64,000 nt of DNA, taken from the NCBI GenBank assembly GCA_944383915.1, contig CALWRJ010000023.1, positions 74,274-138,273 of the forward strand, in the 5' to 3' direction. Shown in pieces: positions 3,979 to 50,910 of the stretch. The notes beneath the pieces are model-generated. The model worked only from the letters and a program-made list of their open reading frames with translations, made no database searches and was not told the origin of the DNA. This stretch comes from an uncultured Clostridia bacterium (GTDB taxonomy: Bacteria > Bacillota > Clostridia > Christensenellales > UBA1242). Each line of letters starts with the position of its first letter. Position 1 is the first letter of the stretch. A program made the position numbers and the translations under genes.

Positions 3979-4372
3979 AATTAGCAATTAGAAATTAGGA
4001 ATTAGGGAGCGCTAGCGCGTATATGCGCGTAGCGCAAATTAGGAATTAGGAATTAGTAATTAGGAATTAGGAATTAAGGAGATATTATCTAAAATAATAT
4101 AATTAAATAATTTTTTGCCTTAATTCAAAGTTCAGCCGTGAGCCATTCACTTATGACAATTACTCTAACAATCGTCTGGCTTTCCGTATGCATTGCATAC
4201 TCCAAGGCAAAATTCAAAATTGCGCGTAGCCAAAGGCGAAGCGTACGCGCGCTTGCGCGCAAGCAATAGGTTTTAATATAATTTAGTGTTAACATAATAA
4301 AGAAATCCAATAAAATCTACGGGCTTCCGCGCGCTTGCGCGCTATTGGGAGTGCGCCTTCGCACCGCACCGC
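3979..4372. repeat. mosaic intergenic repeat block R1
   Basis: AATTAGN heptad arrays at 3979-4006 and 4037-4078, the AT-rich core 4075-4125, the 77-nt structured core 4131-4207, and GC hairpins (GCGCGCTTGCGCGC occurs twice). Confidence 0.9.
4131..4207 (-). repeat. conserved ~80-nt structured core of the composite repeat, copy B (inverted)
   Basis: Its reverse complement aligns with copy A over the full length, with about 10 differences. These include a paired G:C to A:T change in the first stem. Confidence 0.75.
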
Positions 4373-4391
4373 GCGTAGCGGAAAAAGTAAC

Positions 4392-4414
4392 AAAAAGGCT
4401 AGCGCTTGCGCTAG
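4392..4414 (-). terminator. intrinsic terminator after the flippase gene
   Basis: CTAGC-GCAA-GCTAG hairpin at 4399-4414, followed on the minus strand by CCTTTTTG. Confidence 0.55.
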
Positions 4415-4450
4415 AATTTTTGCTTAAAAATTTATTTTTGATATAAAAAA

Positions 4451-6115
4451 TTAAATTTTTCTATTTCTTAATTTTAAAGATTTGAGCATTTGCTTTGGAG
4501 AAACTTGCCCAAAAAGCCACAAAGTAAAAAGATACAAAACCGCACTTCCTAGTATGCCGAGAATTAGTTTTAAGTTTAAAGATATAGGAAGTAATAATAT
4601 ATTTAAGGAATAAAAGACGATTAGCACCACCCCAGCAACGCTCGGTGTTAGTTTTTTGTATTCAAACTTAAAACCGAGTTTTTTCCTTAAATAGATTGCG
4701 TTTAGCAAAGTAGCAACAGCATAAAAGGCGAGATTTGATAGCGCGCAACCGTAAATATTAAAGTGCGGATTGCGGACAAGCAAAACGGTTAACAAAACTT
4801 TCAAAACGCCAGCAAGTATCATATTTATCATAGTTGCCCTACCGTAGCCCAGCCCTTGTAGACTGCTATTTTGGACTTGCAAAATCGAGCCCAACACCAC
4901 AATCGGCGCGCTCACGGTTAGCAAATTTGCCGAAATTCGATTAAATACCGCCCCGCCTAATGTGTTTTGGTATACAAATTGAGTAATTAGTTGCGGATAA
5001 AGTACAAAGACAAAAGCAACAGGCAAGGCAAGAAGTATGCACAAAAGAAGCGCTTGATTAATTTTTTCAATTGAAGCCGAATTATCTTTTAATCTTGCCA
5101 CTGCTGGCACAATGGATATTGCCACGGCAAGACTTAGAGCAACCGGCATATTAATTAGGCTTGTAACAACTCCGCTCTCTATCCCCCACAACTGCGTACT
5201 CGCGCTTTCGGTAAACCCAGCGCGCCCTAAAAGATTCACCACCAAGAAACTATCAATCATCACAATTAGCGGAAGTGTAATGCTCGCTAAAACTATCGGC
5301 ACACTCGTTTTTATCAACTCACGGAAAATGGCGCTATTTTTCGCACTTCTTTTCGTATTAATACTTTTTGTGTCCTTCCGTTTTAAGAAAATGCTAGATT
5401 TATAATTTAATTTTCGTTCTACACTATATCTATTTATATTATGTACAGTACTATGCACCCCGTTTTGCGCAGAGTTAAGGTTAGATTTCTTATCTTTTAG
5501 ATAAATAATGCATAGCACTAAAACCGCCAAAATTTCACTTATTGTTACCCCTAAAATCGCACCGAACGCGCCATATTCGATGCCGTAACCTATTAAAAGA
5601 TACGCGCCTAACAATCCAAAGGCAAGTTTCCCCGCCTGCTCGATAATTTGGCTTAACGCGGTCGGCGTCATATTACTTTGCCCTTGAAAGTATCCACGAA
5701 AGACGCTTAAAATACACACAAAAAAGACGGCTGGCGCAATTCCTAAATATCCAAGGCTACATAATGTGTTCCCTTGTAGGTTTGCAAGCCCTTGTGCCGA
5801 TAGTAACAATATCAAACTAAAAACCGCGCCAACAATAGCCATAAAAATCAAACTTACGCGAAAAACTTGTTGTACGCCCCTTTTATCTCCGCGCTCCTTT
5901 CGTTCTGCCACCATTTTACTAATCGAAGTCGGCATACCACTGCTAGCAAGCACAATTAAGAGCGAAAACACAGGAAAAACAAGTTGATAAAGCCCCAACC
6001 CCTCGGTGCCGAGTATCCAAGTTAGCGGAACGCGGAAAACCGCCCCCAAGACCTTTGCGAGCAAACCACCAATAAATAGGACAAATACACCGCCGAAAAA
6101 AGTTTGTGATTTCAT
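4451..6115 (-). CDS. MOP-superfamily polysaccharide/lipid II flippase (SpoVB/MurJ/YtgP-like)
   Basis: 554-aa polytopic ORF. The N-terminus GGLLAKVLGAVFRVPLTWILGTEGLGLYQLVFPVF is typical of this family. It has a long basic central loop. Confidence 0.7.
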   Translation of the reverse strand: MKSQTFFGGVFVLFIGGLLAKVLGAVFRVPLTWILGTEGLGLYQLVFPVFSLLIVLASSGMPTSISKMVAERKERGDKRGVQQVFRVSLIFMAIVGAVFSLILLLSAQGLANLQGNTLCSLGYLGIAPAVFFVCILSVFRGYFQGQSNMTPTALSQIIEQAGKLAFGLLGAYLLIGYGIEYGAFGAILGVTISEILAVLVLCIIYLKDKKSNLNSAQNGVHSTVHNINRYSVERKLNYKSSIFLKRKDTKSINTKRSAKNSAIFRELIKTSVPIVLASITLPLIVMIDSFLVVNLLGRAGFTESASTQLWGIESGVVTSLINMPVALSLAVAISIVPAVARLKDNSASIEKINQALLLCILLALPVAFVFVLYPQLITQFVYQNTLGGAVFNRISANLLTVSAPIVVLGSILQVQNSSLQGLGYGRATMINMILAGVLKVLLTVLLVRNPHFNIYGCALSNLAFYAVATLLNAIYLRKKLGFKFEYKKLTPSVAGVVLIVFYSLNILLLPISLNLKLILGILGSAVLYLFTLWLFGQVSPKQMLKSLKLRNRKI

Positions 6116-6181
6116 ACTCTTATTTTTGGCTATTACAAAATATTTATACTTATAACTACGCTATTTTTGTTAATTTATAAA

Positions 6182-6206
6182 TAAAAAAAGATAACCGAAG
6201 TTATCT
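6182..6206 (-). terminator. intrinsic terminator after glmM (overlaps the stop codon)
   Basis: AGATAAC-TTCG-GTTATCT hairpin at 6189-6206, then a T7 run on the minus strand. Confidence 0.75.
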
Positions 6207-7542
6207 AAATTCTGTTTATTTTCTCAACAATTTTTGCGCACAGTTTATCAAGTTTTTCCTTTTCTCGCCCTTCGACAAGGACGCGCACGACACTTTCCGT
6301 TCCGCTAGGTCTAACTACAATTCGCCCATTAGTTCCTAGTTCGTTCTCAATTTCGCTAACAAAATCATCGAGTACACCCTTCTCAACTTCGATTTTTTGC
6401 CTTTCGCTCACCGCAACATCGGCATTAGCAATAATTGTGCGGTTTAGCCCTTTTAAAAGTTCGGCTAAACTTGTCTGTTTCTCAATTAAAATCTTTAAAA
6501 GCATTAGCGAAGTCGTTAGCCCGCACGATTCAAACCAAACATCGCTAAACATAATGTGTCCGTTCTCCTCACCACCGAGATTGTACCCCTTTTCCACCAT
6601 TTCGCGCTCAATATACTGTCCGCCAACATTTGTGCGCAAAAGTTGAATACCTAGTTCGTTTAGGCTTGTTTCAAGTCCGCAGTTTGTGATAATTGTAGAA
6701 ACAACGGTATTGTCCTTTAATTCGCCCTTTTCTTTTAAATATTTAGCGAATATGTACATTATATCCGTACCGTCATAAATTGTGCCATCACGCGAAACGA
6801 CTAACACCCTATCGGCGTCACCGTCATACGAAAAGCCGATGTCCGCCCCGCAAGACTTTACGAGTGGCGCAAAATTTTCTATATACACACTGCCACAATC
6901 AGCGTTTATCTCCCTTCCGTCAAGCGAATTGTTAAAACTTATCACCTGCGCGCCTAAAAACTTTAAAGTATACGGAATCACCGCACTTCCAGCGCCATTT
7001 GCTGTATCAATAGCAACTTTTATTCCGTTTAGTTTTGGCATTTTTAGACTATTTAATATATGGTCTACCCAAAGGCGAAGTAAGTCGTCATTCACTTCTT
7101 GACTGCCAATATTACTCGCTTCAACCCCGCGATAACTGTCTAGTTCGAAGTAAATTTTTTCTATTTCGCCCTGTTCTTTTTCGCTTAACTTTAAGCCGTT
7201 AGAGTCAAAAAGTTTGATGCCGTTATGATTTGCTGGATTGTGGCTCGCGGTAATCATAACGCCCGCATCAACATCAAGCGCACTCGTTAAATACGAAAGC
7301 GCTGGTGTTGGCAGTACTCCTGGCATAATCGCACTAAACCCCATTTCGTTTAGCCCAGCAACAAAAGCACTGCGAAGCATTGGCCCAGACACTCGCGTAT
7401 CAATGCCAACTAAAACTTTGTGATATTTGGCAGATTTTGAAATTTCGATTGCCAAAGGCTTACCTATTCCGTAAGCAACAAGTGGCGTAATTTTTTCGTT
7501 TGCAATTCCTCTTATTCCATCTGTACCAAATAATTTCCCCAT
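6205..7542 (-). CDS. glmM: phosphoglucosamine mutase
   Basis: MGKLFGTDGIRG start, TASHNPANHNGIK phosphoserine loop, and a 445-aa length. Confidence 0.92.
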   Translation of the reverse strand: MGKLFGTDGIRGIANEKITPLVAYGIGKPLAIEISKSAKYHKVLVGIDTRVSGPMLRSAFVAGLNEMGFSAIMPGVLPTPALSYLTSALDVDAGVMITASHNPANHNGIKLFDSNGLKLSEKEQGEIEKIYFELDSYRGVEASNIGSQEVNDDLLRLWVDHILNSLKMPKLNGIKVAIDTANGAGSAVIPYTLKFLGAQVISFNNSLDGREINADCGSVYIENFAPLVKSCGADIGFSYDGDADRVLVVSRDGTIYDGTDIMYIFAKYLKEKGELKDNTVVSTIITNCGLETSLNELGIQLLRTNVGGQYIEREMVEKGYNLGGEENGHIMFSDVWFESCGLTTSLMLLKILIEKQTSLAELLKGLNRTIIANADVAVSERQKIEVEKGVLDDFVSEIENELGTNGRIVVRPSGTESVVRVLVEGREKEKLDKLCAKIVEKINRI

Positions 7543-7546
7543 ATGC

Positions 7547-8482
7547 CTAACCTTTTATTTTTTTTGCATACATAGCAGAATTAGTGCCGGCAATTGCACC
7601 GTCAGCAACGGCTGTGGTGATTTGCCTTAAATTTTTATCAACAATATCGCCCGCAGCAAAAACGCCCGAAATATTTGTTTCCATATTCGCTTTTACCACG
7701 ATATAACCGTTATTTAGCGTAATTTTTCCGTCTAGCATTTCGGTATTTGGATTGCGCCCAATCGCGACAAAGACACCGTCAACTGCAATTTTTTCCGTAA
7801 CATTCGACACAACATTGCGCAAAGTCAAACTTTCGACCTTGTCGTGCCCGTTTATGCTATCAACCACGCAGTCAAGTTTTTTAATAATGTTGGAATTTTC
7901 CTTATTTATTAAATTTTCGACTTCGTTTACTGTCGCCTGGTCGGCTCTAAACTCTTGCCTACGATGAATTAAATATAGTTTTTTAACAAGTGGCGCAAGG
8001 TAGACAACATCGCCTAGTGCGGTATTTCCACCGCCAACGACTGCGACAGTCTTATCTTTAAAAAACGCTCCGTCACAAACAGCGCAATAACTCAATCCTT
8101 TGCCGATAAAATCTTTTTCGTTCTTGACACCAAGCCCGCGCGAGTATGCTCCCATACTTAATATGACGGAATACCCCTTATATGTTACTCCACCAGCAAC
8201 AACTTCCTTTATATTACCCTCTAGTTTTAGCAAATCAACTTGCGCAAAAATCGTGTCGACTCCTAGCCCTTGCGCCTGCTCAAACATTGACTGACTCAAC
8301 ATAAAGCCGTCAATAGACTTAAACCCAGGGTAGTTTACAATATTTCCTGTAATCGCAACTTGTCCGCCAACGCCCGCCTTTTCAATTAGTAGTACACTTG
8401 CTCCCGCGCGCGTTGCGTAAATTCCAGCGGTCATTCCAGCAGGACCGCCACCGATAATTATTACATCATAAATTTCTTGCAT
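7547..8482 (-). CDS. trxB: thioredoxin-disulfide reductase
   Basis: YDVIIIGGGPAGMTAG FAD motif, CAVCDG redox centre, and a second GGGNTA dinucleotide motif. Start trimmed from 8551 to the ATG at 8480-8482, which follows GGAGGAAG. The stop is 4 nt from the glmM start. Confidence 0.92.
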   Translation of the reverse strand: MQEIYDVIIIGGGPAGMTAGIYATRAGASVLLIEKAGVGGQVAITGNIVNYPGFKSIDGFMLSQSMFEQAQGLGVDTIFAQVDLLKLEGNIKEVVAGGVTYKGYSVILSMGAYSRGLGVKNEKDFIGKGLSYCAVCDGAFFKDKTVAVVGGGNTALGDVVYLAPLVKKLYLIHRRQEFRADQATVNEVENLINKENSNIIKKLDCVVDSINGHDKVESLTLRNVVSNVTEKIAVDGVFVAIGRNPNTEMLDGKITLNNGYIVVKANMETNISGVFAAGDIVDKNLRQITTAVADGAIAGTNSAMYAKKIKG

Positions 8483-8510
8483 AACTTCCTCCGTATATCT
8501 AATTTCTACT

Positions 8511-8538
8511 ATTATACAAAAAAAATGCCATTTTACAA
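8511..8538 (-). promoter_or_regulatory. sigma-70-type promoter of trxB-glmM
   Basis: On the minus strand, TTGTAA (8533-8538), a 16-nt spacer ending in TG, then TATAAT (8511-8516). Confidence 0.65.
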
Positions 8539-9207: not shown

Positions 9208-9241
9208 CTTTTGCATTTGGTACTTCATCTACAAAAAAGTA

Positions 9242-9270: not shown

Positions 9271-9278
9271 TTAATATA

Positions 9279-9694: not shown

Positions 9695-12433
9695 TTACAT
9701 CACACCACTGTTTCCGCTATCTGTTTGGTCATTTGCATTTGTATTTGTCGGCACAAAGCGAGCAATTATAAGTTTGCTTTCGGCGTTGGAAATGTCTAGG
9801 TCGATTGATTTATCCGTGCTAAATGGTGTATCTGCATCGGCATAATACCAGCCAATAAAATTGTATCCTGTGTAGCAAAATGCACTTAAATGAATATAAC
9901 TATCGCCTTCTGTGTAGCCGTTAATTCTTGCTTCTCCACCACCTATTGAAGCAACCGCAAAGTTTTCTAACAAACTATTTGCAAACACTGCAGTAACTGT
10001 GGTGTTTGCAGTGATGTTGTCTATAGTTAACGGGTTTGCTGTACTGGTAGTTATATTTCCGTCACCCCTATCAATTTGCCAGTATACAAAAGCATTGCCT
10101 CCTACGGCTAGCGCCATAATATTTGATACCGCACCACCACTTTGCACTTGAATTGTTGTAGAATTGCCTAACACATTATTTGCAAAAATTTGCCCAAGAG
10201 TGCTGTCGTTAGTGGTGACAACAACGTTAAATAAAAGCATATCAAACACTGCAGTGTATGTTGCATTTTCAGCAATATTTACCACATAACTCGTTTGATT
10301 TTCAGTACCTTCAATTATTGAATTTCCACCATCTAAACTCCAACCTAAAAAATCATTATCGCCTGCTTGTGTAGCACTAATAACTATTGAACTCCCTGCC
10401 ATATATTCACCACTATTATCACTTACTGCACCCCAATTTGTATTGTTGCTTTGAACTGTAATAGTTGTGTCTAAATCCATTAGTTCCATATTAGCACTTC
10501 TGTTTGTAAATTTAGAACTATGGGTGCTAGATGACGCATTAGTTAAACTTGTTTGGTCTTTTAAGTAATATGTTACATCAGCGTTACCATTTCTAAAAGC
10601 AAATGAGCCTATACTAGATGAAGCTGTTGTTATGGTGTTATAAAAATATACCGAGGTTAAACTGGTACAATCTCGAAACGCATTATTTCCAATGCTTGTG
10701 ACACTATCTCCTATTGTTACCGAGGTTAAACCGCGACAATATTCAAACGCAGAATCTCCTATGCTAGTGACACTATTAGGGATTGTTATCGAGGTTAAAC
10801 CGCTACAACTTCGAAACGCATTACTTCCTATGCTAGTGACACTATTAGGGATTGTTATCGAGGTTAAACTTGTACAGTAACTAAACGCATTACTTCCTAT
10901 GCTGGTGACACTATTTGGTATAATTATTAAGGTTAAACCTCTACAATCAGAAAACGCATATTCTCCTATGCTGGTAACACCATCAGGGATTGTTATCGAA
11001 GTTAAACCGCGACAATATTCAAACGCAGAATCTCCTATGCTGATGACACTATCTGGTATGTCTATCGAGATTAAACTGCTACAATAACCAAATGCAGAAT
11101 CTACTATGGTTATAGTTTCGTGTAATATTGTATATGTTGTATCTGTTTTACCTGCTGGATACTGTATGATAGCACTACCGTCTTTCGTATATAGTACTCC
11201 ATTATCATCCTTGTAGTTTAGATTGTCATTAGACACGTTTATTGATGTTAAGTTATCACAATTATTAAACACACCGTTTCCTATGCTGGTAACACTATCG
11301 GGAATTGTTACCGAAGTTAAACTGCTACAACCATAAAACGCATTTTCTCCTATGCTAGTGACACTATTAGGTAGTTCTATTGACTCTAAACTTTCACAAC
11401 TACCAAACACTTGATTCCCTATGCTGGTGACATTATTCCCAATTGTTACCGAAGTTAAATCATAACAACCAGAAAACGCATGATCTCCTATACTGGTGAC
11501 ACCATCACCAATTGTTGCCGAGATTAAACTAGTACAAAGATTAATCGCATACCTTCCTATACTAATTACACTATCGGGAATTGTTACTGAAGTTAAACCA
11601 TCACAACGACTAAATGCATAATCACCTATACTAGTTACATTATTGGGAATAGTTACTGAGGTTAAACCATCACAATCATAAAACGCATAATTTCCTATGC
11701 TGGTGACACTATCACCTATTGTTACCGAGGTTAAACCAGTACAACTATAAAACGCACCCTCTCCTATGCTGGTTGTTCCTTCTATTATAGAATATTCTCC
11801 CGTTCTACCTGCTGGATATAATACTATTGTTGTACCATCTTTAGAATATATTACTCCGTCTATACTTTGATATGTTTGGTTATTTGGATCAACTGTAATT
11901 GAGGTTAAACCGGTACAATTTCGAAATGCATAATTTCCTATGCTGGTAACACTATCGGGGATTTCTACCGAGGTTAAACTGGTACAATAATAAAACGCAT
12001 AACCTCCTATATTAGTAAGTCCGCTAGGTAAGGTTACACCTGTTATACGGGATCTAACTGAATAAAATACACCACTACTAGTTGAAGAGCTGTTATTCAT
12101 TGTTGTTATGTTATATGTTGCTCCGCTTATTGATACACTATTGGGTATTACCAAAGTTGTTGGTACTGAAGTACTATAATAATAAACTCTATCAAGACGA
12201 CAGACTCCTGAGCCTTCCTCGTAGTAAATAGTTAAATAATACTCATAATCACTTGATGTTGCAGTTGTTCCGTCTGCGTTTATGTATATATTAGTTGAAA
12301 GTGCATTAGCAGTTTGTTCCGTGTCTTTTGATAGAGAAACGCCTAAAATTATTCCACCGGCAACTAGAACTAGGGTGATTATACAGAGCATTGTGTAAAG
12401 TTTATATTTTTTAAAAATTTCTTTAATAGGCAT
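9695..12433 (-). CDS. BspA-type leucine-rich-repeat surface protein with C-terminal Listeria-Bacteroides (InlB B-type) repeats
   Basis: There is an N-terminal TM/signal segment. More than 20 units of the 23-aa repeat IPxSVTSIGxxAFxxCxxLTSVT follow. The C-terminal modules are of the GYNFIGWY / DFLGWSLDG ... TAVF type. Confidence 0.85.
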   Translation of the reverse strand: MPIKEIFKKYKLYTMLCIITLVLVAGGIILGVSLSKDTEQTANALSTNIYINADGTTATSSDYEYYLTIYYEEGSGVCRLDRVYYYSTSVPTTLVIPNSVSISGATYNITTMNNSSSTSSGVFYSVRSRITGVTLPSGLTNIGGYAFYYCTSLTSVEIPDSVTSIGNYAFRNCTGLTSITVDPNNQTYQSIDGVIYSKDGTTIVLYPAGRTGEYSIIEGTTSIGEGAFYSCTGLTSVTIGDSVTSIGNYAFYDCDGLTSVTIPNNVTSIGDYAFSRCDGLTSVTIPDSVISIGRYAINLCTSLISATIGDGVTSIGDHAFSGCYDLTSVTIGNNVTSIGNQVFGSCESLESIELPNSVTSIGENAFYGCSSLTSVTIPDSVTSIGNGVFNNCDNLTSINVSNDNLNYKDDNGVLYTKDGSAIIQYPAGKTDTTYTILHETITIVDSAFGYCSSLISIDIPDSVISIGDSAFEYCRGLTSITIPDGVTSIGEYAFSDCRGLTLIIIPNSVTSIGSNAFSYCTSLTSITIPNSVTSIGSNAFRSCSGLTSITIPNSVTSIGDSAFEYCRGLTSVTIGDSVTSIGNNAFRDCTSLTSVYFYNTITTASSSIGSFAFRNGNADVTYYLKDQTSLTNASSSTHSSKFTNRSANMELMDLDTTITVQSNNTNWGAVSDNSGEYMAGSSIVISATQAGDNDFLGWSLDGGNSIIEGTENQTSYVVNIAENATYTAVFDMLLFNVVVTTNDSTLGQIFANNVLGNSTTIQVQSGGAVSNIMALAVGGNAFVYWQIDRGDGNITTSTANPLTIDNITANTTVTAVFANSLLENFAVASIGGGEARINGYTEGDSYIHLSAFCYTGYNFIGWYYADADTPFSTDKSIDLDISNAESKLIIARFVPTNTNANDQTDSGNSGVM
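10690..11090 (-). repeat. near-identical 69-nt tandem units inside the LRR gene
   Basis: cctatgctagtgacactattagggattgttatcgaggttaaac recurs exactly at 10758 and 10827, and similar units continue on both sides. Confidence 0.8.
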
Positions 12434-12705: not shown

Positions 12706-12759
12706 TTAAGCGCCCCCCCCCCAGCGAATTCTGGGAAGGGGAAATTGTACTTTTTGCAT
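12706..12759 (-). CDS. 17-codon upstream ORF that contains the G10 tract
   Basis: AAGGGGA, then 7 nt, then the ATG at 12757-12759. It translates as MQKVQFPLPRIRWGGGA and stops at the TAA at 12706-12708. Whether it is translated is unknown. Confidence 0.35.
   Translation of the reverse strand: MQKVQFPLPRIRWGGGA
12713..12722 (-). repeat. homopolymeric G10 (C10 on the plus strand)
   Basis: A run of 10 C read directly from the sequence. It is the longest G/C homopolymer I noticed in the window. Confidence 0.95.
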
Positions 12760-12824: not shown

Positions 12825-12880
12825 AACAAAATCACCCATTTTTACAAAATTTCTTAAAATTTTTATATAAAATAAAGTAA

Positions 12881-12989
12881 AAATAAATAATATACCCAGC
12901 AATAACTGCTAATTGCTACCTGCTAATTGCTAATTCTCGCAAAGCGAGTAAGATTGCTACCTGCTAATTGCTAATTCTCGCAAAGCGAG
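12881..12989. repeat. mosaic intergenic repeat block R2
   Basis: ATATACCCAGCAATAA core fragment, then two tandem copies (42-nt period) of ATTGCTACCTGCTAATTGCTAATTCTCGCAAAGCGAG. Confidence 0.9.
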
Positions 12990-16979: not shown

Positions 16980-17065
16980 TATTTTCTCCCTATAAGCTTA
17001 ATCGTAATATATATTTTACCAAATTTTTAAAGTTATGTAAACTAAAAAGTGCCTAAAAGTAGACG

Positions 17066-17395
17066 CTTTAAATTTTGAACGAAGTTCAAAATTAACTAGC
17101 AATTAAGGCTTTACGCTTCGCCTTTCGGCTTCGCTCGAATTTTTCCTTGGAGTGTGCAATAATGCACACGGAAAGCCAGACGATAGTTAGAGTAATTGTC
17201 AATGTGAGTGGTTCACGGCTGAATTTCGAATTAGGAATTTTGAATTATTGCTGGGTATATTTTTTATTTTAGATAATATCTCCTTAATTCCTAATTCCTA
17301 ATTATTTCAGCCTTAACTGCTAATTGCTAATTGCTAATTGCTAATTCACGCTTTGCGTGGTAGATTGCTAATTGCTAATTTTTTTAAAATTTGTA
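17066..17395. repeat. mosaic intergenic repeat block R3
   Basis: AATTTTGAAC-GAA-GTTCAAAATT palindrome, the 79-nt structured core 17145-17223, the AT-rich core, CCTAATT and GCTAATT arrays, and a CACGCTTTGCGTG hairpin. Confidence 0.9.
17145..17223 (+). repeat. conserved ~80-nt structured core of the composite repeat, copy A
   Basis: CCTTGGAGTGTGCAATAATGCACACGGAAAGCCAGACGATAGTTAGAGTAATTGTCAATGTGAGTGGTTCACGGCTGAA. Three hairpins can be drawn from it. Confidence 0.75.
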
Positions 17396-17419
17396 ATTAT
17401 CACAAAAGAAATGTAATAA

Positions 17420-18847: not shown

Positions 18848-18862
18848 AGTTACCCCCATAAA

Positions 18863-19203
18863 AAATTAGGAATTTTACTCGCTTTCGCTCCAATTTTGAA
18901 TTTTGAATTTTGAATTTTGAATTAAGGCTGGAATACCTAATTATAATATTTTAAGTAATAACTCCTTAACTGCTACCTGCTAATTGCTAATTGCTAATTT
19001 GAGCGTAGGGAATAAAATTTCTAATTAAATAATATCGTGAGAGTAAAACTCTTATAGTATGATAAAATCTAGCAGTTATTAGCATAATTATTTAGATATA
19101 TCAAAATTTCTAAAAGCGGAGTTAAATTAAATAAGTATAAGTAACAAGAAATTTTGTCCTTAATTCAAAATTCACAATTCAAAATTCGAGCGTCAGCGAT
19201 AAA
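18863..19203. repeat. mosaic intergenic repeat block R4
   Basis: AATTTTG x4, the AAGGCTGG...CTCCTTAA core, GCTAATT arrays, a second core-like unit, and AATTCAA arrays. Confidence 0.9.
18913..18992 (+). repeat. 80-nt perfect direct repeat, copy 1 (downstream flank of the ABC-F gene)
   Basis: Identical by eye, base for base, to 20880-20959. Confidence 0.9.
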
Positions 19204-19205: not shown

Positions 19206-20786
19206 TTAACTGTTCCTCTCCAAATATTCCTCATAACCGCACATACGGTCGATGAGTCCGTCTTTGATTTCAAAAACGCGGTTTGCAACACTTTGCGCTA
19301 ACTCGTGGTCGTGCGTACTAAAAATAGTTACTCCTTTAAAGTCCACCATACCTTCATTTAAGGCAGTAATACTTTCTAGGTCTAAGTGATTAGTTGGCTG
19401 GTCGAGAATTAAGACATTCGCATTCATCACCATTAGACGCGAGAGCATACAACGCACTTTTTCGCCACCAGACAAGACGCGTACTTTTTTAAGTCCATCA
19501 TCGCCACTAAATAGCATACGCCCCAAAAATCCGCGAAGGTAAGTGCTGTCCTTTTCTTTGCTAAACTGCGCTAGCCACTCTATAATATTCAAATCATTAT
19601 CAAAATAGCCCGCGGTGTCCTTCGGCAAATCGCCTTTTATAACAGTTGTCCCCCACTTCACCGTGCCTTTAAAGTCCGTAATCTCGCCCCCTAAAATTCC
19701 AAGAAGCGCGCTTACCGCCAACTCGTTTTCACCCAGCACAACTACCTTGTCATCGCGGTTTACCCTAAATGAGATATTGTCAAGCAAGACTTTTCCATCG
19801 TGCTCGTAGTAAAGTTTGTCTACTTCCAAAATGTCCTTACCCAACTCGCGCTCATACTTAAAATTTATGTAAGGATACTTGCGGTTTGATACAGGTAATT
19901 CCTCAATTTTGATTTTTTCGAGCATTTTCTTTCGGCTTGTCGCCTGCTTTGCGAGAGATTTTTTCGCACCGAATCTGCGGATAAATTCCTTCAATTCCTC
20001 GATGCGCTCCTCTTTCTTTTTGTTTTGTTGCTTGATTTGTTGTTGCATTAAAGTGCTAGCCTCGTACCAAAAATCATAGTTACCAGGCCACATACTAATT
20101 TTACTAAAATCAATGTCCACGGTATAAGTGCAAACGGTATTTAAGAAATGACGGTCGTGTGAAACAACAATAACAGTCCCAGGATAATTAATTATAAACT
20201 CCTCAAGCCACTCAATACTTTTCGGGTCCATATGGTTAGTTGGCTCGTCAAGAAGCAAAATATCAGGCGTCCCAAAAAGTGCCTGCGCAAGCATAACTTT
20301 TACCTTAATCGCACCATTTTGTTCGCTCATCAACGCATAATGAAGGTTTTCAGGCACGCCTAAGCCGTTTAAAAGTTTCGCAGCGTCAAGTTCAGCGTCC
20401 CAACCATTCATTTCGGCAAATTCAGCCTCGAGGTCAGCCGCGCGCAAACCATCCTCTTCACTAAAATCAGGCTTTGCGTACAGCGCGTCCTTTTCTTTCA
20501 TAATCTCATAAAGGCGCTTGTTCCCCATAATTACGGTGTCCATAATTGTATATTCGTCAAAGGCGAAGTGGTCTTGACGGAGTACGGACATTCGCAAATT
20601 AGCAGGTATTTCAATACTGCCTTTGCTCGCTTCCAAATCACCACTAATAAGGCGCAAAAAAGTAGACTTTCCAGCCCCATTCGCCCCGATTACACCGTAA
20701 CAGTTACCAGGGGTAAACTTTAAATTAACATCTTTAAAAAGTGGCGCTCCGCCAAAAGACAATTCTAGGTCTGTAATTGTAATCAT
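19206..20786 (-). CDS. ABC-F family ATPase (YbiT-like) with a degenerate second nucleotide-binding site
   Basis: There are two NBDs and no TM segments. NBD1 has GANGAGKST and LLLDEPTNHMD. NBD2 has GENELAVSA where Walker A should be, and ILDQPTNHLD (Gln in place of the catalytic Glu). Confidence 0.88.
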   Translation of the reverse strand: MITITDLELSFGGAPLFKDVNLKFTPGNCYGVIGANGAGKSTFLRLISGDLEASKGSIEIPANLRMSVLRQDHFAFDEYTIMDTVIMGNKRLYEIMKEKDALYAKPDFSEEDGLRAADLEAEFAEMNGWDAELDAAKLLNGLGVPENLHYALMSEQNGAIKVKVMLAQALFGTPDILLLDEPTNHMDPKSIEWLEEFIINYPGTVIVVSHDRHFLNTVCTYTVDIDFSKISMWPGNYDFWYEASTLMQQQIKQQNKKKEERIEELKEFIRRFGAKKSLAKQATSRKKMLEKIKIEELPVSNRKYPYINFKYERELGKDILEVDKLYYEHDGKVLLDNISFRVNRDDKVVVLGENELAVSALLGILGGEITDFKGTVKWGTTVIKGDLPKDTAGYFDNDLNIIEWLAQFSKEKDSTYLRGFLGRMLFSGDDGLKKVRVLSGGEKVRCMLSRLMVMNANVLILDQPTNHLDLESITALNEGMVDFKGVTIFSTHDHELAQSVANRVFEIKDGLIDRMCGYEEYLERNS

Positions 20787-20857
20787 TTTTGTACCCTTTT
20801 ACTTTTTTCTCGTTTCAGTCATTTATAAAATAAAATCTAAATACTCGATTGTGCGCA

Positions 20858-21056
20858 AAATTTTGAATTTTGAATTAGGAATTTTGAATTAAGGCTGGAA
20901 TACCTAATTATAATATTTTAAGTAATAACTCCTTAACTGCTACCTGCTAATTGCTAATTCTCGCTTTGCGTGGTAGATTCCTAATTTCTAATTCCTAATT
21001 AATTTTAGCCTTAACTGCTAATTGCTAATTGCTAATTCGCAACAAAGTTGCGGAAT
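20858..21056. repeat. mosaic intergenic repeat block R5
   Basis: Same modules as R4 (80 nt are identical), plus a CGCTTTGCG hairpin, CCTAATT/GCTAATT arrays and a CGCAAC-AAA-GTTGCG hairpin. Confidence 0.9.
20880..20959 (+). repeat. 80-nt perfect direct repeat, copy 2 (upstream flank of the ABC-F gene)
   Basis: Identical by eye, base for base, to 18913-18992. Confidence 0.9.
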
Positions 21057-22929: not shown

Positions 22930-22933
22930 ATAT

Positions 22934-23046
22934 AATTAGGAAATAGTAATTAGGAATTACGGAAGGTTATTATTCAAAATAAATAATATACCCAGTAATA
23001 ATTCAAAATTCAAAATTCGAGCACCAGCGAGTAAGACTGCTAATTT
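22934..23046. repeat. mosaic intergenic repeat block R6
   Basis: AATTAGG-type array, a core (ATAATATACCCAGTAATAA), then an AATTCAA array. The block runs into the MFS stop codon. Confidence 0.85.
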
Positions 23047-24518: not shown

Positions 24519-24785
24519 AATAACTTCCTTTTAAATTTAATTTCCTTTTTAAGCAAAACTAAAACACTTTTAGTAGAGTTGCTAGCAAAAACTCTTTTAG
24601 CAAAATGTTATTCGTTTAAAGTAAATTTTTTTACAGTGTCATTTTTTAATAAAAATCAAACTTAATTTTATAGTGTTGTTTTTTAATAAAAAATATTTAG
24701 TATAATATTAAAACTGCTTTCCTTTTGCCCATACTATAATTTTATTTTATCAAATTTAAACTTTATAAGCAAGCAAATTTAGATT

Positions 24786-25042
24786 AATTAGTAATTAGGA
24801 ATTAGGAATTAGGAATTTCGGGGCGCGTGCGCGCAAGCATATGTGCTTAGCGCAAATTAAGAATTAGGAATTTTATTCGCTTCGCTTAAATTAGCAATTA
24901 GTAATTAGCAATTAGCAGTTAAGGCTTAGCGCTTCGCGCAATTTTGAATTAGAAATTTTGAATTTTGAATTATTACTGGGTATATTATTTATTTTAGATA
25001 ATAACTCCACAATTCCTAATTACTAATTCCTAATTTCTAATT
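24786..25042. repeat. mosaic intergenic repeat block R7, bounded by 32-nt inverted heptad arms
   Basis: 24786-24817 matches the reverse complement of 25011-25042 at 30 of 32 positions. GC hairpins, AATTAGC and AATTTTG arrays and the core lie between the arms. Confidence 0.9.
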
Positions 25043-25059
25043 TTTTCTGCGTGAATACT

Positions 25060-25088
25060 AAAACAAAAAAGACGGTTTCCCGTCTTTT
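25060..25088 (-). terminator. intrinsic terminator ~280 nt after the 4469-aa ORF
   Basis: AAAAGACGG-TTTC-CCGTCTTTT hairpin with T runs on both sides. Confidence 0.75.
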
Positions 25089-25369
25089 TTGCCTTGATTT
25101 ATTGCCTATTAATTTATCTAACAGCGCGCTTGATGGTTTAAAGAGCGCTATTTAGCAAATTTTTATATTTAGCAATAAGTTTTACGCAGTTTTTTTAGTT
25201 TTGTTGTTAAAAAATTAGTGATACAGTTCTTTAAAACAATTAGAATAGTTGAATTGTGTTTTTTGCGTAATTCGAATTTGATAATAAATATCTAATTATA
25301 CATATAACACAAAACAATTTTAGTTATTTTCTATTTTTTTGTTTAATAAGGAAATATAGAAGTTTATTA

Positions 25370-38779: not shown

Positions 38780-38930
38780 AAGGATAAATCCCCCATTTAT
38801 CGTTTAGTACATAATCGCTTCGCGATAATTAGTAATTATTTTTACTAATTATTTTTTAAATCTTTCGGGCAAAATTAAAGGTCGCAAAAACAAGTCATTT
38901 CAGGCAAAATCAAAGGTCGCTTATGCTTTT

Positions 38931-39250
38931 AATTAGGAATTGTGAATTAGGAATCTACCACGCAAAGCGTGAATTAGCAATGAGCAATTAGCAATTAGCA
39001 GTTAAGGCTGAGTACTTAATTATTTTTTGTTGCTTTTTGCTTTTTATTTTTTATATGTCCGTTGGTACTTATTCGCTATGCTCGGATTTTGAATTAGGAT
39101 ATTTCAATTTTGAATTAAGGAGTTATTACCTAAAATAATATAATTAGATATACCTTCCTTAACTGCTAATTGCTAATTGCTAACTGCTAATTCTTGCATA
39201 GCAAGTAAGATTACTAATTGCTAATTAATTTTGAATTTCATTCAAAATTC
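38931..39250. repeat. mosaic intergenic repeat block R8 (between the two adjacent giant ORFs)
   Basis: AATTAGG/AATTAGC arrays, a CACGCAAAGCGTG hairpin, the core, GCTAATT arrays, a CTTGCATAGCAAG hairpin, and a terminal AATTTTGAAT-TTC-ATTCAAAATT palindrome. Confidence 0.9.
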
Positions 39251-39251
39251 T

Positions 39252-46811: not shown

Positions 46812-47221
46812 AATGTACCTCTCTATTTTCTTATAATTTGCTTAATTTCGATAATTAAACAAAAAACAACAAAATTTTTGTCTAAAAATGTAAATTTTTC
46901 GTTGCGCTTTAAAATTTCTTACATTACTTTGCATTTAATAAAAAAACTAATGCGTAATTTGCAATACTAAAAGAATATTTAATCAACATATCATACACAT
47001 CACTTGTGTAATATGTAATTATCATACACATCACTTTTTTACCTTACTCGCAAAGTTAAAAAATACAAGTTTCCGCAACCGAATTAACAAATAACAAAAA
47101 TATTTCACAAACAGCCTTTTGCCCGACTTTTAGTCATATAAATTATATATTATTTAGCAATATTAAGTCAAATAATATACGCCATTTTTCCGCAATTTTT
47201 CGTTATTTTTTACAATAAAAA

Positions 47222-47595
47222 AAATTAGTCGCTACGCCCTACGGCTTCGCTTAATTTTGAATTGTGAATTTTGAATTTTGAATTATGGGGCGCGTGCGCG
47301 CAAGCCCCTAACAATTAGTAATTAGAAAGCTTATTCGCTACACTCAAATTAGCAATTAGCAGTTAAGGATGAAATAATTAGGAATTAGAAATTAGGAATT
47401 AGGAATTAAGGCTGAAATATTCTAATTATAAATTTTTGGTAATATTTCCTTAATTCACAATTCAAAATTAAAGCAAGCCGAAAGGCGAAGCGTACAGCCT
47501 TAACTGCTAATTGCTAATTCACGCTTTGCGTGGCAGATTGCTCATTGCTAATTCTCAACGGAGTTGCGGAAAGCGAAGCGTAAAAGGCGGAACGA
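47222..47595. repeat. mosaic intergenic repeat block R9
   Basis: AATTTTG/AATTGTG arrays, a GGGGCGCGTGCGCGCAAGCCCC hairpin, AATTAGC/AATTAGG arrays, the core, and a CACGCTTTGCGTG hairpin. Confidence 0.9.
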
Positions 47596-47597
47596 AT

Positions 47598-47627
47598 AAA
47601 CAAAAAACCGCCCAAAAAAGCGATTTT
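47598..47627 (-). terminator. possible terminator after degV
   Basis: AAAATCGC ... GCGGTTTT stem (one G-U pair) followed by TTGTTT. Imperfect. Confidence 0.4.
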
Positions 47628-48467: not shown

Positions 48468-48540
48468 AAGCGCACCCCTATATAATTATACATAAATTAT
48501 GCCATATTTTATGCGAAAAATCAATTAATTTAGCACAATT

Positions 48541-48991
48541 TTTTGAATTATAAACTTCAGTCGCTTACGCTCCAATTTTGAATTAGGAATTTAATTCGCT
48601 ACGCCTTTAGCTTCGCTTAATTTTGAATTAGGAATTTTGAATTTTGAATTATGGCTGGAATTATTTAAATATAATATAATTTTATATCCAGCAATAACTG
48701 CTAATTGCTAATTCTTGCGTAGCAAGTTGCATAGTACTGCCTTTTGCTATTTTTGCGTATAATTTATATGCATAATACTATAATCTCATATCAAAAAAAC
48801 TTTGCATAATATTGCATTTTCATATCAAAAACACATGGCATAGTACCAATCCTGCATATTGCATAGTACTATTCCACACCCCTACTGCACAGCGCATAGT
48901 ACAATTAATTAATTTTGAATTATTTCTGGGTATATTATTTATTTTAGATAATAACTCCGCAATTCCTAATTCCTAATTTCTAATTTTTAAT
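48541..48991. repeat. mosaic intergenic repeat block R10 (also contains GCATAGTAC boxes)
   Basis: AATTTTG arrays, two core units, GCTAATT arrays, a CTTGCGTAGCAAG hairpin, four GCATAGTAC boxes and CCTAATT arrays. Confidence 0.9.
48725..48779 (+). repeat. ~55-nt direct repeat, copy 1 (downstream flank of glyQS)
   Basis: AGTTGCATAGTACTG...TTTTTGCGTATAATTTATATGCATAATACT matches 50606-50660 except for a few substitutions. Confidence 0.85.
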
Positions 48992-48997
48992 TATTTT

Positions 48998-50404
48998 TTA
49001 GTTATAAATTTTATCGTGCAAGTAGTCTTTTAAGTCGTCTATTTTTATGCGAGTTTGTTCCATTGAGTCGCGGTCACGAACGGTTACAGCGCCATCCTCC
49101 AAACTATCAAAATCGAATGTTATACAATACGGAGTACCGATTTCGTCTTGCCTACGGTAGCGCTTACCTATCGAACCTGTTGTATCGTACTCACAACGGA
49201 AGTGCTTGTTTAATTTTTTGAAAAGTTCGAAAGCGGGCTCCTCCAACTTTTTACTCAAAGGCAAAACAGCCACTTTTATTGGAGCGATGCTTGGTTTAAA
49301 ACCTAAAACAACGCGTTCGTCATCGGCGTCTAATTTTTCAACCCTATACGCACTGCATAAAAGCGCTAAAAACATACGGTCCACACCAACACTTGGCTCG
49401 ACAACATATGGAATATAACTTTCGTTCGTAAAAGGGTCTGTATAGGTTAAGTCCTCGCCACTGTAATTTTGATGTTGCGTTAAGTCGTAATTTGTGCGAT
49501 TAGCAATTCCCCACAATTCACCCCAGCCGAAAGGATATTTAAATTCAATATCGGTGGTCGCTGCGGAATAAAACACCAACTCCTCTTTTGAATGGTCGCG
49601 AAGGCGGAGCGAATTTTTATCAACACCGATATCAACTAGAAAATCGAAACAAGCAGTACGGTAATACTTGTGCCAATCGCTAGCCGAGTCTGGCTGGCAG
49701 AAAAACTCCATTTCCATTTGCTCAAACTCGCGAGTACGGAAAATAAAGTTTCCAGGCGTTATTTCGTTACGGAAAGCCTTACCAATTTGGCAAACACCCA
49801 TAGGCAACTTGCTACGCGTACTGCGCAACACATTTTTAAAGTTTACGAAAATTCCCCCAGCAGTTTCAGGGCGAAGGTAGACAGTGTCCTTATTCTCCTC
49901 CGTTACACCGATAAAAGTTTTAAACATCAAGTTAAATTTGCGAATAGGCGTAAAATCGCAAGTATTACAATTTGGACAAGTAATGTTGTTATTTTTGATA
50001 AAATCTTGCATTTCGGCATCATTCATCGCTTCTACACTGCCGATTTCTATTTTGTTACCCTTTTTCTCCTGCTCGCTTAACCAATTTTCGATTAATTTAT
50101 CTGCGCGGTGGCGAGTACGACACTTTTTGCAATCTATCAAAGGGTCACTAAACCCAGAAACATGGCCACTCGCTTCCCAAACGCGCGGATTCATAATTAT
50201 CGCGCTATCAAGCCCAACATTGTGTGGCTCCTCTTGTACAAAACGCTTCCACCACGCGCTTTTAATATTATTTTTGAGTTCGACACCTAGCGGACCATAG
50301 TCCCAACTATTAGATAGCCCCCCATAAATTTCACTACCGGCGAAAATAAAACCGCGATTTTTGCAAAGCGCAATTAATTCCACCATAGACAAATCGTCTT
50401 TCAT
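48998..50404 (-). CDS. glyQS: glycine--tRNA ligase (alpha2 homodimeric type)
   Basis: 468 aa. [24 protein letters not shown] near the start and the class II core motifs. AAGGAG RBS. Confidence 0.93.
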
Positions 50405-50439
50405 TTTAGTATTACTCCTTAAAGAAAAATATTGAAAGT

Positions 50440-50468
50440 ACTATATCATATTTTTTAGTTTTTAGCAA
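50440..50468 (-). promoter_or_regulatory. sigma-70-type promoter of glyQS
   Basis: On the minus strand, TTGCTA (50463-50468), a 17-nt spacer, then TATAGT (50440-50445). The leader is only about 30 nt. Confidence 0.55.
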
Positions 50469-50482
50469 GCAACTTATTAAAT

Positions 50483-50910
50483 AATTAGAAATTAGGAATT
50501 AGGAATTAGGAATTAGGAATTGCGGAGTTATTTACTTAATATGTATATCTATTATAGAAAATTTAGCCTTAATTCAAAATTCAAAATTCAAAATTACACA
50601 AAGTGAGTTGCATAGTACTGTAATTTTATCATTTTTACGCATAATTTATATGCATAATACTGTTGCATAGTACCATTGCATAGTATATTATATATTAAGA
50701 TATTTGCCTAAAATGGATTTTGTACCTAGCCGGAAAAATTAAGTAAAACGAATAAAAGAAAAAGGATAAAATATTAATTTCATCCTTAACTGCTAATTGC
50801 CTTTGCGCTTCACCTTTGGCTTTACTTATTTTTAATGCTTGCGCGCTAGCGCACGATAACTGCTAATTGCTAATTCCTAATTGCTAATTATTTTGAACTT
50901 TGTTCAAAAT
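50483..50910. repeat. mosaic intergenic repeat block R11 (also contains GCATAGTAC boxes)
   Basis: AATTAGG x5, the core, AATTCAA x3, three GCATAGTA(C/T) boxes, GCTAATT arrays, and a terminal ATTTTGAAC-TTT-GTTCAAAAT palindrome. Confidence 0.9.
50606..50660 (+). repeat. ~55-nt direct repeat, copy 2 (upstream flank of glyQS)
   Basis: AGTTGCATAGTACTG...TTTTTACGCATAATTTATATGCATAATACT. Confidence 0.85.

Follow-up and report, generated by a model that had tools for sequence, protein, structure and literature searches.

The 64,000-nt stretch of an uncultured Clostridia bacterium analysed here (contig CALWRJ010000023.1, positions 74,274 to 138,273; hereafter the window) carries a genuine, dispersed and mosaic family of intergenic repeats built on tandem heptamers of the form AATTNNN. 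The element consists of two arms of complementary 7-bp arrays, which enclose an AT-rich core or further, nested elements. A four-helix-bundle gene (PF05635) is bracketed by inverted arrays of the same kind both in a sister species and across six phyla, suggesting how bacterial heptamer repeats may have originated. With moderate confidence, we propose from sequence comparison and from analogy with the intervening sequences (IVSs) of 23S rRNA that the repeat blocks of the window are gene-less relatives of an IVS-like cassette and might form long stems in transcripts. The repeat class itself is already known; what is new is a very dense, elaborately structured heptamer family in gut Clostridia.

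A regular-expression search of the window found 27 runs of at least three AATTNNN units, spanning 3979-50892; composition-preserving shuffles contained 0.035 on average and never more than 1. Tandem Repeats Finder (TRF), which is independent of that expression, called period-7 arrays at the identical sites. Perfect arrays of three or more units have period 7 only, none being found with period 5, 6 or 8-11. AATTNNNAATT occurs 114 times, 111 of them in spacers, which make up only 13% of the window. Of the 18 spacers that exceed 100 nt, 11 are occupied, the same count as in the original prediction, which had described the family from the window alone as an unrecognised kit of tandem heptads, GC-rich hairpins and AT-rich cores. 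That prediction put the coverage at roughly 3.4 kb or about 5% of the window; a conservative recount gives 2.75-2.85 kb (4.3%). The window has a GC content of 38% with every long gene on the minus strand, and its genes comprise housekeeping functions (CysRS, AspRS, ABC-F, DegV, Dus, TrxR, PGM) and giant surface proteins. An exact-sequence look-up of the CysRS and Dus proteins matched no recorded entry. Three contigs with proteins identical to those of the window, obtained from other samples and with other assemblers (L127, L128 and L129), are 99.96-100% identical to it through the spacers. Therefore, the arrays are not an assembly artefact. Nor are they confined to the window, as had also been considered, since the family recurs in the sister species and AATT heptads occur in many phyla. 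No tRNA or tmRNA gene was found in the window, and Rfam 15 gave no match to it at the gathering thresholds; at E<=1 a single chance-level miRNA match lies outside the blocks. The family-specific junction AATTAGCAATTAGCAGTTAAGG had no match in the metagenome contig collection.

The GC-rich hairpins, the TTAAGG/CCTTAA cores in both orientations and the TTCGCT module that had been listed with the heptads are all present, and all are intergenic. Among the hairpins, CACGCTTTGCGTG has three copies (one reversed), CTCGCAAAGCGAG and GCGCGCTTGCGCGC two each and CGCAACAAAGTTGCG one; CTTGCRTAGCAAG and the TTCGCTTAATTTTG module also occur twice each. The junction AGCAGTTAAGG is present in 10 copies and the core GGAGWTATTAYYTAAAATA in seven, in either orientation, while the 45-nt core originally quoted was located in block 8 (Table 1). 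Read in gene direction, a block runs from a heptad array through AATTAAGG or AGCAGTTAAGG and an AT-rich core of 35-50 nt to CCTT and an array of the other or complementary type, with short GC-rich hairpins and the TTCGCT..CGC module placed at the array ends. Self-BLAST of the window revealed that multi-module stretches recur across spacers in both orientations with 80-98% identity, such as 4057-4215 against 17304-17137 (170 nt, 83%), 18892-18992 against 20859-20959 (101 nt, 98%) and a further pair of 86 nt (93%). The AATT phase is not kept across whole blocks but is lost between consecutive arrays. Therefore, the arrays are separate modules, and the idea of a block as one degenerate array was rejected on the same ground. 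A further module of about 85 nt (CAGCCG...CTGGCTTTCCG-hairpin-CTCCAAGG) was found in blocks 1 and 3 of the window and at 1596-1690 and 7790-7880 of the sister-species contig L161. It accompanies arrays in both species and in both orientations, and its consensus fold is weak (-4.7 kcal/mol) with a few compensatory pairs.

On either strand, the large blocks fold far more stably than their dinucleotide-shuffled versions (z = -4 to -9), because their outer helices are formed by complementary arrays. Each is a long imperfect palindrome, whose arms pair as (AATTAGG)n/(CCTAATT)n, (AATTTTG)n/(CAAAATT)n or (AATTAGC)n/(GCTAATT)n. The inverted arms are 30-70 nt long and 80-97% complementary, giving helices of 18-29 bp, and are often capped by the TTAAGG/CCTTAA junction and a small GC-rich hairpin. 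The earlier claim that any two arrays can pair in register every 7 nt was overstated, as AATT alone provides only four of the seven paired bases; the long stems form where the triplets of two arrays are complementary as well. Likewise, the modules do form a mosaic, as self-BLAST confirms, yet the blocks are long palindromes with complementary array arms and not merely shuffled kits. By manual reading of the spacers, ten of the 11 blocks begin no more than about 40 nt after the upstream stop codon, and the remaining one (block 7) follows an intrinsic terminator. The distance to the downstream start codon ranges from about 25 to about 450 nt. The GC hairpins in the blocks are not followed by a T-run. 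A portable promoter made of a T-array and the core (TTGAAT-N17-TATATT) was considered but abandoned, since the core is found in either orientation.

The link to a gene was found in the sister species (contigs L006, L161 and L162; CysRS 88% and AspRS 93% identical). Its AspRS->ABC-F spacer, the counterpart of that holding block 5, contains a gene of 118 codons whose product scores 109.8 bits with PF05635 (23S_rRNA_IVP; cutoff 33.8) and also matches TIGR02436 'four helix bundle protein'. The arrays on the two sides of this gene, (GAATTTT)4.7 and (AATTCAA)4.6, are reverse complements of each other without a mismatch. The downstream arm in L161 is identical over 39 nt to window positions 20857-20895 in the orthologous spacer, where the interiors differ, and the upstream arm together with its GC palindrome is 87% identical to 47253-47307 in block 9. 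This gene link was visible only in related genomes and thus outside the reach of the original prediction, whose suggestion of non-autonomous mobile DNA or RNA processing was a reasonable guess.

Similar cassettes were found among at least 120 loci selected for AATT[WKS]-type arrays, one genome per species. These loci belong to Bacteroidota, Cyanobacteriota, Lentisphaerota, Acidobacteriota, Patescibacteria, Planctomycetota, Pseudomonadota and other phyla, with high-GC genomes included, and the listed loci hold 380 period-7 arrays compared to at most 33 of any other period. An ORF search of the loci in hand with the sister protein yielded six further PF05635 genes, four of them exactly between inverted arrays (Table 1). 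In addition, the gaps between inverted complementary pairs in the 120 listed loci are bimodal. One group has gaps of 6-180 nt and represents hairpins, while exactly complementary pairs with gaps of 378-463 nt number four, each of which encloses a PF05635 ORF (two Bacteroidales, Segetibacter and a Neisseriaceae metagenome-assembled genome (MAG)); other wide-gap pairs among the listed loci hold ordinary genes or none. In Nostoc (L024), the idea that widely separated inverted arrays enclose an autonomous element was rejected, as the genes there are ordinary rmlA/C/D.

Since these loci had been chosen for their heptads, an independent sample was drawn by protein similarity. A tblastn search of PLSDB with the sister protein gave 30 plasmid records, mostly from Nostocales and otherwise from Bernardetia, Chondrinema, Monoglobus, Treponema and Chlorohelix, of which 14 were analysed by TRF over 200 nt on each side of the gene. 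Period-7 arrays lie on both sides of 12 of the 14 PF05635-like genes. The heptads of the two sides are perfectly reverse-complementary in seven (Monoglobus AATTAGG/TAATTCC, Bernardetia ATTAGTG/TCACTAA, Dolichospermum, Nostoc punctiforme, Aulosira, Gloeocapsa and N. flagelliforme) and complementary but for one or two mismatches in two others. The plasmid cassettes come from Cyanobacteriota, Bacteroidota, Bacillota, Spirochaetota and Chloroflexota. Overall, PF05635-like genes bracketed by inverted heptamer arrays were seen in at least six phyla. As a density control, two 50-kb regions (N. punctiforme pNPUN01 and Bernardetia) were examined, in which eight of the ten period-7 arrays of at least three copies lie no more than 170 nt from three PF05635 genes. 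One of the two remaining arrays is (TAACTGA)5, the repeat known from Beggiatoaceae and Bacteroidetes (PMC4679880), on the Bernardetia plasmid (L179, 2752-2787), 22 kb from the four-helix-bundle gene. Related four-helix-bundle proteins (68-76% identity) may have unrelated heptads while their arms are still complementary, a compensatory change that speaks for a stem; the heptad sequence does not track the protein phylogeny. The plasmid genes (L164-L177) lie inside operons, with co-oriented genes to either side, such as hsdS-hsdR, cas2-cas1, helicase-methylase and RND adaptor-permease. The first three, like DUF1156-HEPN, are defence operons, in which such genes were met repeatedly. Cassette operons are often those of restriction-modification, CRISPR adaptation, efflux or aminoacyl-tRNA synthetases (aaRSs), and a gene table of Flavobacterium columnare places a four-helix-bundle gene between guanylate kinase and nicotinate-nucleotide adenylyltransferase (PMC5524665). 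One N. punctiforme gene adjoins XisH/XisI. The matching region of the Monoglobus copy has stop codons in the one frame tried and no annotated gene, and may be a pseudogene. The protein family as a whole is very large, its clusters numbering over 6,000 at E<=1e-20.

Comparison with relatives, all of them from human-gut metagenomes, revealed that the repeat family is restricted to a small clade. The syntenic contigs L001-L005 and L131 (CysRS 73-80% identical) and L163 (AspRS 86%) have no arrays and far shorter spacers. The ABC-F->CysRS spacer measures 10-67 bp in array-free relatives versus 346 bp in the window, and that between the polysaccharide-synthesis gene and HU 6-38 bp versus about 520 bp. 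In L130 (CysRS 81%), the ABC-F->CysRS spacer is 0 bp, yet one block lies in the spacer downstream of CysRS. The sister species carries the family in eight of about 14 spacers. Among five orthologous spacers, the two species share blocks in two, differ in one and have a block in one species only in the other two. The ABC-F->CysRS spacer (block 4) has its arms and one core in common with the sister, the nested unit being extra in the window; the MFS->AspRS spacer (block 6; MFS, major facilitator superfamily) contains different modules; the CysRS->SLOG spacer (block 3) is filled only in the window and the spacer after SLOG only in the sister. Orthologous arms in the window and in L006 are also unlike in heptad composition. 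Comparing strains, as originally advised, gave no presence/absence polymorphism among conspecific contigs, while gains and losses between the sister species were evident at two of the five spacers. Array-free relatives together with these gains and losses indicate that the family arose in the small clade and turned over after the split of the two species.

Heptanucleotide repeats are the most over-represented class of long simple sequence repeats (SSRs) in prokaryotes, with origin and function unexplained; polymerase slippage was proposed earlier as their cause, and in cyanobacteria they serve strain typing (PMC4679880, PMC4692102). Examples include the cyanobacterial STRR elements (short tandemly repeated repetitive DNA), Xanthomonas GGGAATC, Nostoc GGGGAYT and TAACTGA of Beggiatoaceae and Bacteroidetes. 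Such arrays are intergenic and phylogenetically sporadic, with heptamers mixed within a spacer and sometimes inverted and hairpin-forming, and strains related to the carriers have shorter, repeat-free spacers or 7-nt step differences (PMC4679880, PMC4692102, PMC2670836). STRR heptamers form hairpins between co-transcribed genes, for which a role in transcript stability was proposed (PMC2670836), and Vioque 1997, to judge by its title as cited in PMC2858038, places STRRs also within cyanobacterial RNase P RNA genes. Since the literature already records this class, the window family is a variant within it: the mosaic, lineage-specific family stands as originally described, whereas its building block does not count as unrecognised. 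Similar to the known class, the window has short tandem runs of a 7-bp unit (2-6 copies or more) at many loci, nearly all intergenic, with mixed heptamers per spacer, inverted pairs able to form hairpins, sporadic distribution and relatives with shorter, repeat-free spacers. Unlike the known repeats, it belongs to gut Clostridia, has an AATT core with AGG, AGC or TTG triplets at a density of 27 arrays per 64 kb, and sets its arrays in a fixed grammar of TTAAGG junctions, AT-rich cores, GC hairpins and nested palindromes. In the strict sense the family is not a cyanobacterial STRR, as the host is a member of the Clostridia and the units are AATTAGG, AATTAGC and AATTTTG, which we take not to be of the STRR1-3 type.

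The rRNA IVSs offer a model for the gene-bearing form. They are regarded as selfish, are sporadic and horizontally acquired, and have terminal inverted repeats that pair into a 28-bp stem. Their ORF, for S23p, may decay, and they are tolerated because RNase III cuts them out of the transcript (PMC4990558). The sister-species cassette and 20 further cassettes of this analysis share the architecture of the 23S rRNA IVSs of, for example, Coxiella burnetii and Leptospira, in which a stem of about 28 bp surrounds an ORF of about 120 codons for a four-helix bundle. Unlike the rRNA IVSs, the cassettes described here lie in mRNA spacers and operons and not in rRNA helices, and their arms are tandem heptamers. 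The window blocks have the inverted terminal repeats; the PF05635 ORF between the arms is present in the orthologous spacer of the sister but not in the window. As inverted arms around an S23p ORF are the architecture of an rRNA IVS, we read the window blocks as gene-less, partly nested cassettes. The source cassette would be a gene of about 120 codons for a four-helix-bundle protein (PF05635/TIGR02436, S23p, Avd-like) within inverted heptamer arrays, ranging from Clostridia to Cyanobacteria. From the one orthologous spacer and the shared arm and hairpin modules, we infer that the gene-less blocks may descend from such gene-bearing cassettes. The elements are taken to be transcribed because they lie directly after stop codons or between co-transcribed genes. 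In the transcript, the arms would pair into a register-tolerant, double-stranded stem of 18-30 bp, which might be a substrate of RNase III, as in the rRNA IVSs, or a hairpin that protects the 3' end. Either way, the insert would be tolerated in operons, and neighbouring cistrons might be uncoupled. The arrays would lengthen and shorten by slippage, while the complementarity of the arms would be maintained either because the stem is selected for or through intrastrand template switching. Homology between arrays would allow modules to be copied, nested and exchanged between spacers, resulting in the mosaic.

Bacterial heptamer tandem repeats have been catalogued since 1990 without explanation. 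More speculatively, heptamer repeats (STRRs and period-7 long SSRs) might largely be arms or gene-less remnants of one pan-bacterial selfish PF05635 cassette, the same entity as the 23S rRNA IVSs, residing in operons and kept harmless by RNase III, with the window representing a lineage whose miniature forms fill about 4% of the DNA; we regard this extension as possible rather than probable. Our literature search gave no report tying four-helix-bundle or S23p genes to heptamer repeats, and an earlier mention is possible in Elhai 2008, Mrazek 2007 or Vioque 1997.

Several observations weigh against reading the blocks as relatives of an IVS-like cassette. A tblastn search of the window with 15 four-helix-bundle proteins (E<=10) found no PF05635 ORF or remnant. 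Neither the 64-kb window nor 21.7 kb of the sister species contains a transposase, and no target-site duplication was found; inverted arms are present, but their ends are tandem arrays, in which such a duplication is not definable, and the empty-site comparison gave no clean boundaries. Array length does not vary among three window-species and ten sister-species strain-level contigs, and the near-identity of the conspecific window contigs gives no sign of current mobility. The sister cassette sits with invariant arms at one fixed AspRS/ABC-F locus in at least ten samples, and its protein was found in no other genomic context (11 of 11 contigs). A PF05635 gene stands between the arms in only four of the 120 listed heptad loci, most natural arrays being gene-less, so that the gene could have joined as a passenger after the arrays were in place. 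Among the plasmid cassettes, three of 14 have direct arrays and two an array on one side only, and in only eight of 11 cases, which is not significant, does the gene point the same way as neighbours that themselves share a direction. Finally, consensus scans revealed no enrichment of promoter-like or terminator-like sites in the blocks.

The main rival takes the arrays as original, namely that selfish or structural heptamer hairpins spread alone, that four-helix-bundle genes land or persist in their loops, and that the window blocks never bore a gene. It accounts for the roughly 96% of listed heptad loci that are gene-less, for the 6-180 nt spacing of most inverted pairs, for the lack of any four-helix-bundle remnant in all 11 window blocks and for heptad-stem hairpins with unrelated GC-rich loops in many metagenomes. 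However, if arrays were independent and common, the clustering of eight of the ten control arrays beside four-helix-bundle genes would be unexpected. In addition, arm-to-gene distances are similar in six phyla, and the Monoglobus copy, interrupted in the frame tried, may be an intermediate with a decaying ORF. We consider this explanation unlikely, though it is the most serious competitor of the IVS-like cassette.

It is quite improbable that the blocks are a family akin to repetitive extragenic palindromic (REP) sequences, bacterial interspersed mosaic elements (BIMEs) or REP doublets (REPINs) moved in trans by a REP-associated tyrosine transposase (RAYT; IS200/IS605-type Y1), or else miniature inverted-repeat transposable elements (MITEs) of a conventional insertion sequence (IS), encoded elsewhere in the genome. 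Like REP/BIME elements and REPINs, the blocks are mosaics of small palindromes that follow stop codons or separate cistrons, occurring in both orientations and with nested copies, with probable effects on mRNA 3' ends, and they differ in presence between sister species. Unlike them, the hairpins are only 12-15 nt long and of several sequences, no conserved REP motif or 5' GTAG-type tetranucleotide was noticed, the arms are variable-length tandem repeats, the phylum differs, and no RAYT was seen in the 64-kb window or L161. With bacterial MITEs (Correia/NEMIS, RUP, Nezha) the blocks share small size, lack of coding capacity, inverted ends, intergenic and nested position, presence/absence between species and a gene-bearing relative. 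This gene-bearing form is without a transposase, however, and the ends are variable arrays and not unique, fixed inverted terminal repeats, with neither target-site duplication nor strain-level polymorphism seen. The family matches none of the REP/BIME, BOX, RUP, ERIC and Correia types, as had been predicted. It is not a CRISPR either: CRISPRs consist of identical repeats of 24-48 nt regularly interspaced by unique spacers, whereas the units here are 7 nt, head-to-tail, and the modules irregular.

Protein binding is another explanation with a low probability. The phased AATT minor-groove motifs might serve as nucleoid or regulatory platforms, for an HU-like protein or a pentameric four-helix-bundle protein, or as RNA targets of a post-transcriptional regulator, the latter as proposed by MacGregor for TAACTGA repeats (PMC4679880). 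The palindromic AATT core is regularly spaced, and an HU-like ORF adjoins block 1. However, the AATT phase is lost between modules, neither the orientation of the blocks nor their distance from start codons or promoters is fixed, related cassettes keep periodicity and complementarity but not the heptad sequence, and close relatives are array-free at the same housekeeping genes. The least probable alternative is that of plain microsatellites arising in place by polymerase slippage in AT-rich spacers (Mrazek-type), convergent between spacers and neither an element nor functional, which fits the over-representation of heptamers among long SSRs of many prokaryotes (PMC4679880, PMC4692102) and the heptad differences between orthologous arms of window and L006, but which for the blocks as wholes is largely refuted by the recurrence with the arrays of non-repetitive modules (cores, GC hairpins, AGCAGTTAAGG junctions and the 85-nt module) at 80-98% identity in both orientations, by the arms being organised as complementary pairs, by zero copy-number variation among the 3 + 10 strain-level contigs and by the array-free state of the syntenic AT-rich relatives L004 (GC 36.5%) and L131 (34%).

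If the link between heptamer arrays and the IVS-like cassette is true, two poorly understood features, the STRR-type repeats and the IVS/S23p genes, would be unified, RNase III processing sites would be predicted inside many operons, and annotators would gain a rule for recognising such elements. If it is false, the window still holds a new lineage-specific mosaic family that has doubled or tripled the spacers between housekeeping genes. The window is an unusually dense and well-structured heptamer instance in a human-gut Clostridia lineage, and its comparison outwards gave a testable gene link, for which N. punctiforme PCC 73102, Monoglobus pectinilyticus and Bernardetia are cultured carriers suited to experiments.

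Table 1. Repeat blocks of the window (positions in the 64-kb stretch) and PF05635 genes between inverted arrays among the heptad-selected loci.
Feature	Position	Context	Arms and arrays	Other parts
Block 1	3974-4264	spacer polysaccharide-synthesis gene -> HU-like ORF	arrays 3979-4006 (AATTAGC/AGA/AGG); (AATTAGG)n 4037-4078	GC palindrome 4007-4036; core TTAAGGAG...GCCTTAA 4074-4125; ~85-nt module 4130-4215; GCGCGCTTGCGCGC hairpin 4247; further GC hairpins nearby at 4329, 4351, 4401
Block 2	12879-12989	directly 3' of M23 peptidase gene terminator	(TAATTGC)n arrays	CTCGCAAAGCGAG hairpins 12936, 12977; 41-nt tandem duplication; partial core 12880-12905 (..ATATACCCAG, reversed)
Block 3	17054-17398	CysRS->SLOG spacer	(GCTAATT)n arrays; arms (CCTAATT) 17285-17303 vs AATTAGG.. 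17229-17247, flanking core	CACGCTTTGCGTG hairpin 17347; AGCAGTTAAGG junctions; ~85-nt module 17137-17222
Block 4	18861-19199	whole ABC-F->CysRS spacer	outer inverted arms 18879-18916 / 19162-19199 (38 nt including flanking TCGCT modules, 89%; inner 30 nt 97%); (AATTTTG)n...(CAAAATT)n, TCGCT..CGCTC module before each; helix 19187-19158/18898-18927 (12+17 bp; 30 nt at 97%)	core1 19110-19160; nested (GCTAATT)n-CCTTAACTGCT-core2 unit
Block 5	20857-21055	AspRS->ABC-F spacer	right arm 20857-20895 (GCCTTAATTCAAAATTCCTAATTCAAAATTCAAAATTTT, read on - strand); AGC and AGG arrays	interior without gene: core2; CGCAACAAAGTTGCG hairpin 21038
Block 6	22932-23020	MFS->AspRS spacer	(AATTCAA)n 23000-23020; CCTAATT units 22934-22960	core ATTACTGGGTATATTATTTATTTTGAATAATAACC, reversed orientation
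Block 7	24785-25047	between 4469-aa gene terminator (25064-25091) and MFS gene promoter region	outer arms 24786-24817 (AATTAGG)n / 25011-25042 (CCTAATT)n (32 nt, 94%); helix 25035-25011/24793-24817 (13+11 bp); (AATTAGC)n 24889-24921; (AATTTTG)n 24940-24974	GGGGCGCGTGCGCGCAAGC palindrome 24819-24845; core 24975-25010
Block 8	38929-39249	between 2519-aa and 4469-aa surface-protein genes	arms 38938-39007 / 39157-39226 (70 nt, 80% complementary); perfect 25-bp stem AGCAATTAGCAATTAGCAGTTAAGG / CCTTAACTGCTAATTGCTAATTGCT, helix 39181-39157/38983-39007	hairpins CACGCAAAGCGTG 38959, CTTGCATAGCAAG 39193; 45-nt core ~39117-39160; folding z -9.3
Block 9	47230-47571	DegV->2519-aa gene spacer; nested palindrome	outer arms 47230-47270 / 47452-47492 (41 nt, 85%; each TTCGCT module + (AATTTTG)n); helix 47469-47452/47253-47270 (18 bp); second-level arms 47313-47371 / 47495-47553; (AATTAGG)n 47376-47410	GGGGCGCGTGCGCGCAAGCCCC palindrome 47287-47309; core 47411-47451
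Block 10	48561-48996	spacer between class-II aaRS gene and DegV	arms 48619-48643 (AATTTTG/AGG) / 48961-48985 (CCTAATT), 317 nt apart	TTCGCTTAATTTTG module 48612; CTTGCGTAGCAAG hairpin 48714; cores 48655-48700, 48911-48960; TTGCATAGTAC repeats inside 48720-48900
Block 11	50476-50927	spacer upstream of class-II aaRS gene	arms 50479-50515 (AATTAGG)n / 50857-50893 (GCTAATT/CCTAATT) (37 nt, 89%, 341 nt apart); (AATTCAA)n 50571-50598	core 50525-50570; TTGCATAGTAC repeats 50600-50690; AGCAGTTAAGG junction 50784; TGCGCGCTAGCGCA hairpin 50840
L023		Bacteroidales; around PF05635 gene	inverted arrays AATTTTG/AAAATTC	
L072		Aphodosoma; around PF05635 gene	AATTCAT/AATTATG	
L090		Segetibacter; around PF05635 gene	AATTAGG/ATTCCTA	
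L117		Neisseriaceae MAG; around PF05635 gene	(AGTTAGG)11.6/TAACTCC	

Further features were observed beside the blocks. The HU-like ORF next to block 1 (96 aa, 3642-3930, minus strand) is unlisted and lies inside an '852-nt spacer', so that the spacer proper runs from about 3931 to 4450; in relatives, the syntenic place is taken by two HU genes. The loops of blocks 10 and 11 contain six to seven repeats of TTGCATAGTAC (GTACTATGCAA on the gene strand) at 48727-48902 and 50608-50685, upstream of DegV and the class-II aaRS gene. This set, nearly absent elsewhere in the window, looks like iteron- or operator-like sites. Over 11.5 kb, L127 differs from the window at four positions, all inside repeat-bearing spacers (47472-47474, 48687 and 48729); at two of the four the base of the other strain is that of the family consensus, possibly as a result of gene conversion among copies.

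In L130, a GC-rich inverted pair (GCGCGGAGAGCGCGCGGCTCAATA...) at 4165-4195 and 4740-4770 surrounds an insert of about 570 bp that holds one heptad-core-heptad unit, and this is a different type of element, bounded by terminal inverted repeats. The sister contig L161 has at 20040-20200 a tandem repeat of about 58 nt (GGAAGGCTGGCTCCAAAAGGGCATCCAGCCTCCAAACA...) upstream of an apparent tRNA-like 3' end and a leucine-rich repeat (LRR) gene, adjoining a serine recombinase gene. Outside the intergenic family, the tandem repeats of 69, 138 and 207 nt at 10652-11773 of the window are coding BspA-type LRRs of the 912-aa surface-protein gene (9695-12433). About 280 nt upstream of that gene lies a C10 homopolymer (12713-12722; G10 on the gene strand), which may be a phase-variable tract.

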